A stretch of 64,000 nt of DNA. It comes from Bacteroidota bacterium (GTDB lineage Bacteria; Bacteroidota; Bacteroidia; 2-12-FULL-35-15). The stretch covers positions 4,951 to 68,950 of the forward strand of contig CANIQT010000012.1 in assembly GCA_947469885.1 (NCBI GenBank). The letters are read 5' to 3'. The position numbers were made by a program, and so were the translations under genes. The notes under the pieces are model-generated. The model was not told the DNA's origin and did no database searches. It saw only the letters and a list, made by a program, of their open reading frames with translations. Shown here one piece after another: positions 36,208-39,990 of this stretch (positions are counted from its first letter, which is position 1; every line of letters starts with the position of its first letter).

Positions 36208-39200
36208 TTAATGAACGTTTGTTGTATATTCAATAGCACCACTTGCATATACAGTAGTTGTACCTGCATTGATACCATACATTACTACAATCCAATCTCC
36301 TTTAGACAATGCTGTTGAAGCAGTCACTTCCCAGTTATAGGTAGTGTTTGCAGCAGCAACGATACTTGTGCTACCGATTAAAGTAGGAGTCATGCTTGTT
36401 AATACTGCTGTAGCGTTAGACGGAGTATATTTGTAAATATAAACAGTTACGGTTTTAGCACCACTAACATATAAGTTACCAACTCCTTTAGAGAACGTAC
36501 CATCGCTGGTAACATAAGTTCCCATTGAATTCAAATTACCTGCTGCTTTTTGGTTTTGACCAAAAGTTGCTGGAGTACCATATTGAACTTGGTTGTAATA
36601 AGTTCCTGTAGCAAATTGTGTAGAAGTAGTAGTGTTAGCTGCAGTAACCGAAGGAATTGCCATAGACACAATAGATACCGGTTGAACGAAAGCCGAACTA
36701 ACACCAGTACCTTGTAAATATAATCCGTTAGGACCAACTGACATAGAACCAGTAGCACCTACCGCACCTGTTGCACCTGTTGCACCTGTTAAACCTTGAA
36801 TACCTTGGATACCTTGATCACCGGTTGCTCCTGTAGCTCCTGTTGCACCGGTTGCACCGGTTGCACCTGTTGCTCCTGTTGCTCCTGTTGCTCCTGTATC
36901 ACCAGTAATACCTTGTATACCTTGGATACCTTGACCACCAGTTGCACCTGTTGCACCTGTTGCTCCTGTGTTACCTTGAGGACCCGGTACTGTTGAAGCA
37001 GCACCTGTTGCACCTGTTGCTCCTACTGCTCCTGTTGCCCCAACTGCTCCTGTTGCTCCTGTATCACCTGTTAAACCAACGTTACCTTGTATACCTTGTA
37101 TACCTTGGCCACCAGTTGCACCTGTTGCTCCTGTATTACCTTGAGGACCTTGTGCTCCAGTTAATCCTGTATCACCTGTAGCGCCAGTTGCTCCTGTTGC
37201 ACCTGTTGCTCCTGTATCACCTGTTAAACCTTGGATACCTTGACCACCGGTAGGACCTACTGCACCTGTTACTCCGATTGGACCTTGAGGACCAGTATCT
37301 CCAGTTGCACCAGTTGCACCTGTTGCACCATCAAGACCATCAGCACCGTTTAACCCATCAACACCATTATTTCCAGCAGCACCATCAGCACCAGTATCTC
37401 CAGTTGCACCAGTAGCACCAGTTAAACCAATAGGACCTTGAGGACCTACCGGACCATCGTTTCCTTGAATACCTTGATTACCTTGAGGACCTTGTGCTCC
37501 CTGAGGACCAACATTACCTTGAGGACCTTGGATACCTTGAGGACCTTGAGGACCTGTTGCACCTGTATCACCCGTTGCTCCTGTTGCTCCTGTATCACCT
37601 GTTGCTCCTGTTGCTCCTGTATCACCAGTTGCACCAGTATCACCTGTTGCTCCTGTATCTCCTGTATCACCTGTTGCTCCTGTTGAACCAGCAGCACCTT
37701 GGTCACCCTGAACTCCCTGAGGACCTTGAATACCTTGAGCTCCCTGAGCACCAGCTGAACCAGTTGAACCTGCAGGACCTTGAACACCCTGAGGACCAGC
37801 TACACCTTGAATACCTTGAGTACCTTGAATACCTTGTACTCCTCCTGAAGGACCTTGAGGACCTGTTCCGCCAGTAGCACCTGTTGCTCCTGTTAAACCT
37901 ATATTACCTTGAGGACCCGGTACTGTTGAAGCAGCACCTGTTGCACCTGTTGCACCCACAACACCTTGAATACCTTGAATACCTTGACCACCTGTTGCAC
38001 CTGTTGCACCAGTGTTACCTTGAATACCTTGATCACCAGTTGCACCAGTTGCACCTGTGATACCTTGAATACCTTGAATACCTTGACCACCAGTAGCACC
38101 TGTTACACCTATATTACCTTGAGCACCTAAAGGACCTTGAGAACCTTGAGGACCTACAACACCCTGAGGACCTTGAGGACCTTGAGAACCTGTAGGACCT
38201 ACCGGACCTGCTGGACCATCGTTACCTTGAGGACCTTGAGGACCTTGAGGACCTACCGGACCACCAGAAGGACCAATTGGACCTTCAGGACCTGTTGCAC
38301 CATTAGCACCTGCTGGACCTGGTACAACTGACGCTGCACCTGTTGCTCCTACTGCACCAACTGGACCTTGAGGACCCATTGGACCAACTGCACCAGTATC
38401 TCCTGTTGCTCCTGTAGCACCATCAGCTCCATCAGCTCCATCAGCTCCATCAGCTCCATCAGCTCCATCAGCACCATTTAATCCGTCTGAACCATTATTA
38501 CCTGCAGGACCAATATCTCCTGTTGCTCCTGTTGCACCTACTGCACCTTGAGGACCTACTGGACCTGTTGCACCTGTATTACCTTGAATACCTTGATTTC
38601 CCTGAGGACCTGCTGGACCTTGAGCACCTTGAGCACCTGTATTTCCTTGAGGACCTTGAATACCTTGAGCACCAACAGCACCTTGAGGACCTTGAGCACC
38701 TTGAGCACCTGTTGCACCTGTAGCACCTACAGCACCTGCAGCACCTGTGTTACCTTGAATACCTTGAATACCAGCTGGACCTTGAATACCTTGAGGACCT
38801 TGAGGACCACCTGGATCACCTGTTGCTCCTGTTGCTCCTGTTGCACCGTTAGTACCATTAGCACCTGCCGGACCCGGTACAGTTGAAGCTGCACCTGTTG
38901 CACCCGTAGCGCCTGTTGCTCCATTAGCACCTGCTGCTCCGTTTGTACCATTTGTACCATTAGTTCCAGCAGCACCTGTTGCTCCTGTTGCACCGTTAGC
39001 ACCTGCTGCACCATTAGCACCTGCAGGACCTTGAGGACCTGCTGCACCGTTTGTTCCAGCAGCACCTGTTGCTCCTGTTGCTCCATTAGCACCTGCTGCT
39101 CCGTTTGTTCCGTTTGTTCCGTTTGTACCAGCAGCACCCGTTGCACCTGTTGCACCGTTAGCACCTGCTACTCCTGCTGCACCATTAGCACCTGCAGGAC

Positions 39201-39990
39201 CTTGAGGACCTGCTGCACCATCATTTCCATTAGCACCTGTTGCTCCATTTGCTCCTGCTGCTCCGTTTGTTCCGTTTGTTCCGTTTGTTCCAGCAGCACC
39301 TGTTGCTCCTGTTGCACCGTTAGCACCTGCTGCTCCTGCTGCACCATTAGCACCTGCAGGACCTTGAGGACCTGCTGCACCGTTAGCACCTGCAGGACCT
39401 TGAGGACCTGTTGCACCATCTGCACCATTTACACCATCTAAACCATCATTACCATTGTTTCCGTCAGCACCTGCTGCACCGGTTGCGCCAGTTGCTCCGT
39501 TAGCACCTGCTGCACCTGCTGCTCCATTAGCACCTGCTGCTCCTGCTGCTCCTGTTGCGCCAGTTGCTCCGTTAGCACCTGCTGCTCCATTTGCACCTGC
39601 TGCACCATTAGCACCTGCTGCTCCTGCTGCTCCTGTTGCGCCAGTTGCACCTGCAGGACCTTGAGGACCTGTTGACATTACCCATGAAGTTCCATTAAAA
39701 TACCAAAACCCGGCAGAACCGTCAGTTTGATAAATTAATAAACCTGTAGCTGGAGAAGCAATTGCATTTCTTTGTGCAACTGTCATTCTTGGAACCAACA
39801 TACCTTTAGTAGTTGACGACACGTCCATCATTGCTGAAGGATCGGCCGTAGCTCCCGTTGAACTAACACCTACACCGTTCTGGCTATAGGCATTCTGAAA
39901 CGCTACCATAAACGTGATAACGCCTAAAGTAATAAAAAATCTCTTCAGACTTTTAGATTTACTTTCATTTGAATTTGTAATTCTTTTCAT
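36208..39990 (-). CDS. Collagen-like triple-helix repeat protein (1,260 aa): signal peptide, conserved N-terminal tail-fibre-like domain, ~970 aa of Gly-X-Y, C-terminal ~180-aa globular domain; no T9SS sorting domain
   Basis: The N-terminus reads [37 protein letters not shown], then ...[43 protein letters not shown]. Uninterrupted GATGATGAAGANG / GPQGPAG triplets follow, broken only by recurring AAS(T/V)VPGP interruptions. The C-terminus [12 protein letters not shown]...[30 protein letters not shown] has no G-X-Y periodicity. Confidence 0.85.
36750..39669 (-). repeat. Gly-X-Y collagen-like repeat region, including near-identical internal subrepeat duplications at ~38850-39650
   Basis: The complement shows a GGACCT/TGCACC three-base periodicity. 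Blocks encoding GAAGANGATGATGAAGTNGTNGTNGAAGANGATG recur three or more times almost identically. The alternate-frame ORFs in the track here are artefacts. Confidence 0.8.

Follow-up and report, generated by a model that had tools for sequence, protein, structure and literature searches.

A phage-fibre-like collagenous protein without a T9SS sorting domain and its candidate T9SS partner in a Bacteroidota bacterium

Introduction

The closest described counterparts of the protein reported here are BclA and BclB of the Bacillus exosporium nap, in which a short N-terminal base is followed by a collagen stalk with Thr at the Y position and a C-terminal TNF/C1q-like head. BclA is built mainly of GPT triplets, and its base docks on a separate partner protein, ExsFA/BxpB. 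Other bacterial surface collagen-like adhesins are Scl1 and Scl2 of streptococci and Lcl of Legionella; in the Scl proteins, the V domain at the N-terminus forms the trimer and initiates the helix. Bacteroidota are believed to present large adhesins chiefly via type IX secretion (T9SS), with the use of C-terminal sorting domains (CTDs). Here, a 64,000-nucleotide stretch of contig CANIQT010000012.1 from a Bacteroidota bacterium (assembly GCA_947469885.1; hereafter the window) was analysed, and we describe a gene at 36208..39990 on the minus strand that encodes a collagen-like protein without a CTD (hereafter the fibre protein), together with the T9SS cargo gene directly downstream. The fibre protein is proposed, with a likelihood that we judge to be about even, to be a Sec-exported homotrimeric surface fibre docked on, and perhaps exported with, the product of that downstream gene.

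Functionally, the fibre protein most resembles BclA: the holding of the BclA base by ExsFA/BxpB parallels the proposed docking, and the fold matches of the fibre head include ExsFA/BxpB and a BclB_C-annotated protein. However, its commonest triplet is GAT instead of GPT, its N-terminal module (PF26696) is unrelated, its stalk is several times longer and regularly interrupted, and it carries a Sec signal peptide in a Gram-negative Bacteroidota host. It is not a member of the BclA family, because the BclA_C domain was unmatched, its N-terminus differs and it comes from a Gram-negative host. The model for Scl2/SclB in NCBIfam scored above its cutoff on the fibre protein (405.9 against 325), and those for Lcl (382.5 against 500) and Scl1/SclA (359.8 against 400) scored below theirs; these scores came from the G-X-Y repeats alone, and the match is compositional. 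In contrast to Scl and Lcl, the fibre protein has no LPXTG motif, V domain or Lcl C-terminal domain, and the role of the Scl V domain is the one proposed here for its PF26696 module.

C1q and the collagen-like fibril proteins of giant viruses share the collagen stalk and C-terminal jelly-roll cap and are among the best matches of the head to predicted viral structures, but the fibre protein has a bacterial host, a different N-terminus and no sequence match to PF00386. Other Bacteroidota PF26696 proteins, mostly with a Peptidase_S74 chaperone, likewise have a signal peptide directly followed by the module (45-70% identity), lack a CTD and are often encoded beside T9SS cargo; a collagen stalk was found in only 2 of 66 sampled, and the head of the fibre protein belongs to a very small subfamily. 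One collagen-stalked member, with 98 triplets, is encoded by the cultured Fibrella forsythiae HMF5405 (L069). A phage collagen-like tail fibre (L095, 5145-8216) also combines a collagen stalk with the module, but in reversed polarity, the module being C-terminal, without a signal peptide and in a viral context. By its sequence, the fibre protein is placed in PF26696 and in the collagen-repeat class.

Pairing with a T9SS cargo gene

No T9SS sorting domain was found in the fibre protein at E ≤ 1 with the models for type A (PF18962/TIGR04183) or type B (PF13585/TIGR04131, CHU_C), as a first-pass annotation of this DNA had stated. A custom hidden Markov model (HMM) of CTDs, which does detect the three type-A CTDs of the window, gave no match either. 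This absence was common to 88 of 90 sampled PF26696 members; the sole two with a fused C-terminal type-A CTD were adjacent proteins of one locus (L046, 3543-5789 and 6013-9021).

The gene located 69 nt 3' of the fibre gene (33127..36138, minus strand) encodes a 1003-aa T9SS type-A cargo protein, identified with Pfam and NCBIfam, which consists of a signal peptide, an N-terminal domain, PKD/HYR repeats and a CTD (residues 924-1002; nt 33133..33369). The N-terminal domain, approximately 260 aa in length (residues 44-309; 35212..36009, minus strand), had no Pfam match.

To place this arrangement in context, 80 genome loci covering ±6 kb around PF26696 genes were sampled, and type-A CTDs were marked by the custom HMM. 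Genes with a type-A CTD stood beside PF26696 genes in 15 of 66 cases at position -1 and in 14 of 58 cases at position +1 (23-24%), compared with 13 of 224 (approximately 6%) at offsets of three or more (Fisher p = 3.6e-6). Across the sampled loci, 13 proteins showed homology to residues 44-309 of the partner, with E-values down to 3e-15 for the single sequence and of 1e-40 to 1e-77 for the profile. Eleven of these 13 were encoded directly downstream (+1) of a PF26696 gene, on the same strand and with gaps of 3-77 nt where measured. The custom model identified a CTD on 12 of them, and the remaining one (L072) matched Pfam Por_Secre_tail. The fibres encoded ahead of the partner-domain genes differed in both stalks and heads, and the PF26696 module is the likeliest partner contact because it was the only element common to all of them.

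A second partner type, with the motif WNIGTATG.Y.VPF, followed other PF26696 genes, including that of one relative with the same C-terminal domain as the fibre protein. Another locus contained tandem minimal genes, each for the module plus this C-terminal domain, with CTD cargo, a SprB/CHU_C protein and PorP/SprF encoded on the flanks, and further loci with relatives of the C-terminal domain were likewise flanked by CTD cargo. From these comparisons, which are the best available support for it, we infer that the fibre protein may dock on its partner. The first-pass annotation had suggested docking onto a partner surface protein, and the suggestion has now gained comparative backing from the occurrence of the partner N-terminal domain at +1 in 11 other loci, which is consistent with docking.

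In the 69-nt spacer between the fibre and partner genes, RNA folding predicted a 13-bp hairpin followed by AT-rich sequence (36167..36200, minus strand; -21.8 kcal/mol), which was not called as a terminator by a consensus scan. The hairpin could attenuate read-through, stabilise the fibre mRNA, or tune the ratio of fibre to partner expression.

N-terminal module and its occurrence in phages

The fibre protein begins with a Sec signal peptide read from the sequence (residues 1-36; 39883..39990, minus strand), in which no lipobox Cys was present. Its predicted cleavage site, AYS|Q, would conform to the known 'Q-rule' of signal-peptide cleavage in Bacteroidota, and Gln37 was nearly invariant among 71 aligned homologues. 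The module follows directly (residues 37-107; 39670..39882, minus strand) and was delimited from homologues and a custom HMM. A database search returned 171 homologues at E ≤ 1e-3 (best 1e-30), and all 120 of the homologues listed carried PF26696, named 'PTL_trimer', in precomputed annotation (E of 1e-17 to 1e-30). The custom HMM built from module homologues matched the fibre protein at E = 3e-38 and had no other match in the window. Nothing useful was obtained for the module from NCBIfam, PHROGs or the Pfam set scanned, which did not include the PF26696 model; its profile had no match among PDB sequences, and literature searches found no paper on the PF26696/PTL_trimer family. Sequence identity was 42-69% to 70 aligned homologues and 44-68% in a genome scan across several orders, and residues G63, L65, R68, I77, P80, A81, G83, and L84 were invariant in the alignment.

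In the scan, which used one genome per species, the module was found in at least 587 genomic stretches. Its carriers included Chitinophagales, Flavobacteriales, Cytophagales, Sphingobacteriales, Bacteroidales, and Ignavibacteria, with several paralogues per genome. The N-terminal motif quoted by the first-pass annotation was located at residues 62-103, and the search that it had called for across Bacteroidota thus showed the motif to be widespread. The module stood directly behind the signal peptide in all 66 full-length genome proteins, and the domains behind it were those of trimeric fibres: Peptidase_S74 chaperone in 29, YadA_head in 7, Collagen and phage tail Collar in 2 each, and Gp10_C, BclA_C, and C1q in 1 each. 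None of the 66 had a T9SS sorting domain.

Many other PF26696 members were stand-alone proteins of 112 aa. The stand-alone proteins of 111-112 aa contained a signal peptide, the module and a tail ending in ..QNTLIYTTKGF, and in all six sampled loci their genes were followed by a gene for a conserved 131-aa secreted protein ending in ..SAIEFNVVQ (L002, 5995-6790; L006, 5806-6719; L017, 1858-2609; L024, 5944-6688; L063, 5998-6810; L040, 2558-3299). The 131-aa protein had no Pfam match, and it was rejected as a split-off C-terminal domain of the fibre protein (hhalign probability 0.1%).

The module, approximately 65 aa in length, was also detected on viral contigs and in phage genomes (domain E-values from 1e-13 to 1e-27). 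In these sequences it was C-terminal or internal in long proteins without a signal peptide, and in one protein it occurred twice. In the IMG/VR contig L095, a phage fibre had a 182-triplet collagen stalk followed by a C-terminal module (domain E = 2.3e-24). The proteins of L095 matched tail-fibre families mainly via their collagen repeats, and a fibre protein of another viral contig, L096, matched PHROG tail families outside any collagen region. L096 also had two consecutive fibre genes each ending in the module (3195-5069 and 5115-8171), and similar pairs were present in L091, L097, L098, L104, L113, and L116, which suggests paired or branched fibres with one common terminal module. The module was further found in the cyanophage Leptolyngbya phage Lbo-JY46 (PP438436.1, 92305-92484; at the C-terminal end of a hypothetical protein of 380 aa) and in two records of uncultured phages, of 735 kb (LR756501.1 and LR756503.1, 395049-395204), and it therefore extends beyond phages of Bacteroidota.

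The first-pass annotation had placed the motif at the N-termini of both Bacteroidota and phage fibre-like proteins; this applies to Bacteroidota, but the phage copies are C-terminal or internal. The difference in placement indicates that the module is portable and used in opposite polarity. The same annotation had regarded the domain as an anchor: it is indeed a conserved domain, but since its only catalogued label is 'PTL_trimer', we treat it as a portable trimer module for which anchoring is a putative role. In an AlphaFold2 (AF2) monomer model, residues 62-105 formed one helix and three strands with pLDDT >90, and the low-confidence residues 40-61 would fit a segment that is ordered only in an oligomer. 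Phage tailspike N-terminal parts were among the structures nearest to this model in Foldseek, but at E = 2 these matches were not used.

These data also bear on a reading with the same trimeric architecture and no dedicated partner, in which the module binds an envelope component (lipopolysaccharide or an outer-membrane protein whose gene lies elsewhere) or the fibre is released, and the adjacency to T9SS genes merely reflects co-regulated adhesin islands. We consider this possible, though fairly unlikely. It would agree with the approximately 85% of sampled PF26696 loci that lack the specific partner family, with the hairpin between the fibre and partner genes, and with the module identity of 45-70% across orders, which would fit a universally conserved interaction partner; moreover, the phage module is often at the distal fibre end, where receptor binding is common. 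On the other hand, it does not readily account for 11 of 13 partner-domain proteins being exactly at +1 on the same strand with short gaps, for an enrichment of CTD genes that is specific to -1 and +1, or for the fused module-CTD proteins of L046. The internal and double occurrences in phage proteins likewise suit a tip for receptor binding less well than a structural trimer node.

C-terminal head

The C-terminal domain (residues 1084-1260; 36211..36741, minus strand) comprised 177 aa of non-collagen sequence, in agreement with the globular head of about 180 aa described in the first-pass annotation. A 183-aa query containing it gave no Pfam match at E ≤ 1, BclA_C, C1q (PF00386), and TNF included, and no NCBIfam match was found at the same threshold. 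A word-indexed protein search returned no match, and Fab light chains returned from PDB sequences were chance matches. An exhaustive search of 1.84 billion cluster representatives gave 10 matches, of which 6 were true relatives; the other four (P0125-P0127 and P0129) were rejected as Gram-positive repeat proteins matched via low-complexity TxTYVY segments. A profile search added 5 relatives, giving approximately 11 in all.

All of these relatives carried PF26696 or a visibly PTL-like N-terminal module except P0122, which proved to come from a split gene and to represent its C-terminal half, the module lying in the other half. The two halves are overlapping open reading frames (ORFs) of L131 (4666-5931 with the module and 5891-7519 with the head), and L132, from another metagenome sample, matched identically in the scan; a frameshift among the repeats, a pseudogene, or an assembly error that recurs could each account for the split. 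Between the module and the head, the relatives had non-collagen repeats as long as 1286 aa or, where the whole protein was 256-279 aa, nothing. The head family ends in the conserved motif SG..E.T.N(V/I)Q.

An AF2 model of the head, built from the 11-sequence alignment, had eight strands (pLDDT 72.7, pTM 0.72) in a predicted TNF/C1q-like jelly roll. Foldseek comparison with the PDB gave 30 matches at E ≤ 1e-3, among which TNF ligands (Eiger, TL1A, TRAIL, TNF-alpha, and RANKL), phage knob or receptor-binding domains, ExsFA/BxpB of the Bacillus exosporium, and viral jelly-roll capsid proteins predominated. The best match was the central-spike knob of phage phi812 (E = 4e-5, TM 0.50), and the binding domain of a cyanophage short tail fibre was also among the matches; the receptor-binding protein of lactococcal phage 1358 fell just over the limit (E = 1.6e-3). 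Against predicted viral structures (BFVD), 405 matches were obtained at E ≤ 1e-3, the best at 4e-9 with TM 0.62-0.66, including collagen-like proteins from both giant viruses and phages as well as proteins with C-terminal C1q or BclB annotations. These predicted folds support a head of the TNF/C1q/BclB-type jelly-roll class behind the collagen stalk, as the first-pass annotation had supposed with its C1q/TNF-like domain.

The position of this domain at the extreme C-terminus, its all-beta structure, its conserved end motif and the relatives that consist of the module and this domain alone would also be expected if it were an unrecognised secretion or sorting signal, such as a divergent T9SS CTD, instead of a head. 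This appears quite improbable. The domain matched neither Por_Secre_tail, CHU_C, TIGR04183, and TIGR04131 (E ≤ 1) nor the custom CTD HMM, it is approximately twice the size of a CTD with a predicted TNF-like jelly roll, and it is very rare. Moreover, most PF26696 proteins end differently, for example in Peptidase_S74, so that export of the family cannot depend on it.

Collagen-like stalk

The stalk (residues 108-1083; 36742..39669, minus strand) matched Pfam Collagen (PF01391, E = 1.3e-129) and contained 319 G-X-Y triplets in 8 runs over 976 aa, close to the 970 residues estimated in the first-pass annotation. It was composed of G (33.6%), A (20.4%), T (12.9%), Q (8.1%), P (6.5%), and N (5.5%), among other residues, and the commonest triplets were GAT (77), GPQ (30), GAA (30), and GIQ (22). 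Lys, Arg, His, Cys, and aromatic residues were absent, and 36 Asp were present. No match to the O-glycosylation motif of Bacteroidota, D-(S/T)-(A/I/L/V/M/T), was found in the fibre protein.

The break AAS(T/V)VPGP occurred in four copies (residues 367, 552, 686, and 997) and not in the six that had been reported. The extra residues were STVP 369-372 within GAASTVPGP in the first break (38875..38886), SVVP 554-557 in the second (38320..38331), STVP 688-691 in the third (37918..37929), and STVP 999-1002 in the fourth (36985..36996), all on the minus strand. Each of the first three was followed, 7-9 triplets on, by a one-residue insertion of the form GG(P/V)xG: Q397 in GGPQG, 8 triplets past break 1 (38800..38802), V579 in GGPVG, 7 triplets past break 2 (38254..38256), and Q719 in GGVQG, 9 triplets past break 3 (37834..37836), again on the minus strand, giving seven interruptions in total. 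With the four breaks, the stalk falls into four long segments and a shorter one at the C-terminal end; the breaks are candidates for flexible joints. The first-pass annotation had also called the stalk Pro-poor as in BclA; the low Pro content was confirmed, but the likeness is inexact, BclA being mainly GPT. It was thus partly confirmed overall, the ORF, G-X-Y repeat, motif, and CTD absence holding and the break count and BclA comparison not.

At the DNA level, the stalk consisted of diverged tandem repeats with nested periods of 9-165 nt and 63-96% matches; the repeats are old and do not represent a collapsed assembly.

If triple-helical, the stalk would be approximately 279 nm in length (computed with 0.286 nm per residue). 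The periplasm is usually only about one-tenth as wide as a rod of some 280 nm is long, which speaks against a structural role within the envelope, with the fibre protein retained in the periplasm or on the inner side of the outer membrane. Such retention would be compatible with a protein that has a signal peptide but no recognised signal for outer-membrane translocation. We consider it improbable, since the head and the family domains are of extracellular-fibre and phage receptor-binding types and the gene lies within a surface-adhesin cluster.

Fibre gene and its surroundings

The fibre gene is a single 1260-aa ORF with an ATG start, and the coordinates given above include the stop codon; further ORFs listed within 36208..39990 were frame artefacts from the repeat. 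Three metagenome contigs, the longest of 485 kb (ENA ERZ27263719), encoded an identical 1260-aa protein, and the ORF is therefore not a one-off assembly product. The upstream intergenic region (39991..40724, 734 nt, minus strand) contained three matches, at 40362, 40347, and 40298, to TAnnTTTG, the -7 box consensus of Bacteroidota. These lie within 40291-40362, 300-365 nt ahead of the ATG, and may have a promoter role, judging from the consensus. A sigma-70 promoter scan, which is unsuited to Bacteroidota promoters, gave only chance-level results. In addition, an A-rich leader (40024..40071, minus strand) contained direct repeats, AATCAATTAAAAACAA and AACAAAAATCAATCAATTAA, each present twice.

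The fibre protein was the sole large surface-type protein of its cluster without a sorting domain, as noticed in the first-pass annotation. Besides the type-A partner, the cluster encodes an upstream neighbour of 2445 aa (40725..48062, minus strand) with AgmC_N-like and PKD domains and a CHU_C type-B CTD, and a giant adhesin of 7744 aa (6136..29370, minus strand) with PKD-like repeats near its end and a type-A CTD. A 562-aa protein encoded on the plus strand (3744..5432) also had a type-A CTD. No LPXTG motif was present in the fibre protein, and no Pfam match to YadA_anchor, the barrel of trimeric autotransporters, was found, its C-terminus being a predicted soluble jelly roll. No PorP/SprF-like gene was recognised near the type-B cargo; a 318-aa ORF (31098..32054, minus strand) considered for this role had no Pfam match at E ≤ 1. 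A gene for a Uma2-family putative endonuclease (29822-30397, minus strand) was situated between the giant adhesin gene and the remaining cluster. Among the 80 sampled loci, genes for NarL/LuxR-type response regulators were found within 6 kb of PF26696 genes in 10 (e.g., L070, 741-1370), and none was near the fibre gene of the window.

The other genes of the window encoded a sigma factor, a TonB-like protein, an NlpC/P60 peptidase, a prolyl oligopeptidase, quinolinate phosphoribosyltransferase, and PspC. The window represents ordinary chromosomal DNA. Although tail fibres of phages may contain PTL modules as well as collagen stalks, and phage knobs and receptor-binding proteins match the head in fold, it is extremely improbable that the fibre gene belongs to a prophage or tailocin or derives from a phage tail-fibre gene: no phage gene was identified within the 64 kb, its neighbours being adhesins, peptidases, and housekeeping genes, and the combination of a Sec signal peptide with an N-terminal module was limited to signal-peptide proteins, unlike the C-terminal or internal modules of phages, which come without one.

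Discussion

In the proposed mechanism, three PTL modules would associate after cleavage at AYS|Q, set the register of the chains, and nucleate the collagen helix from the N-terminus. With so little Pro and no basic residues, the helix should need terminal clamps. The TNF/C1q-like head would trimerise, clamp the far end of the stalk, and form the distal tip, which, from its predicted fold, is most likely a ligand- or glycan-binding adhesive tip. The seven interruptions would serve as joints in the rod. The PTL base would dock on the N-terminal domain of the downstream T9SS type-A cargo, which would keep the fibre on the surface of the cell and perhaps also take it through the T9SS.

Several observations weigh against this proposal. 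The specific partner family was present at only approximately 15% of the sampled PF26696 loci, so that docking on it cannot be a rule for the whole family, and the census of partner domains covers only the ±6 kb around PF26696 genes. The hairpin between the fibre and partner genes means that co-transcription is not assured. The AF2 structures are monomer models, from which trimerisation of the fibre may only be inferred; the N-terminal model had no significant match in the PDB with Foldseek (best E = 2), and the head model had a low-confidence loop (its residues 47-69) and TM-scores of only 0.35-0.5 to solved TNF domains. Literature searches found no paper on T9SS export of a CTD-less protein, nor on the display of such proteins via T9SS partners.

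Extending the proposal to the family, we tentatively suggest, with the chances rather against it, that PF26696 fibres are a widespread, undescribed class of Bacteroidota surface appendages made from phage tail-fibre parts, which lack a T9SS signal of their own and are displayed by docking of the PTL module on an adjacent dedicated T9SS cargo protein, in a two-partner 'piggyback' manner. The gene described here would be the collagen-stalked, C1q-headed version.

The fibre protein alone follows a familiar plan, that is, a collagen stalk with a C1q-like head. Being an extreme bacterial collagen that is interrupted at regular intervals and poor in both Pro and charge, it could be relevant to collagen design. 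The wider interest lies at the level of the family, in a large phage-derived set of CTD-less fibres in Bacteroidota with a conserved pairing to T9SS cargo. That phage and cellular fibres carry the PTL module at opposite ends clearly exemplifies an exchange of modules between the tail fibres of phages and the surface structures of their hosts. A family of this size, made up of signal-peptide-bearing, phage-fibre-like proteins without CTDs, raises the question of how they cross the outer membrane, and the conserved pairing with a specific T9SS cargo protein provides a concrete hypothesis for their display.

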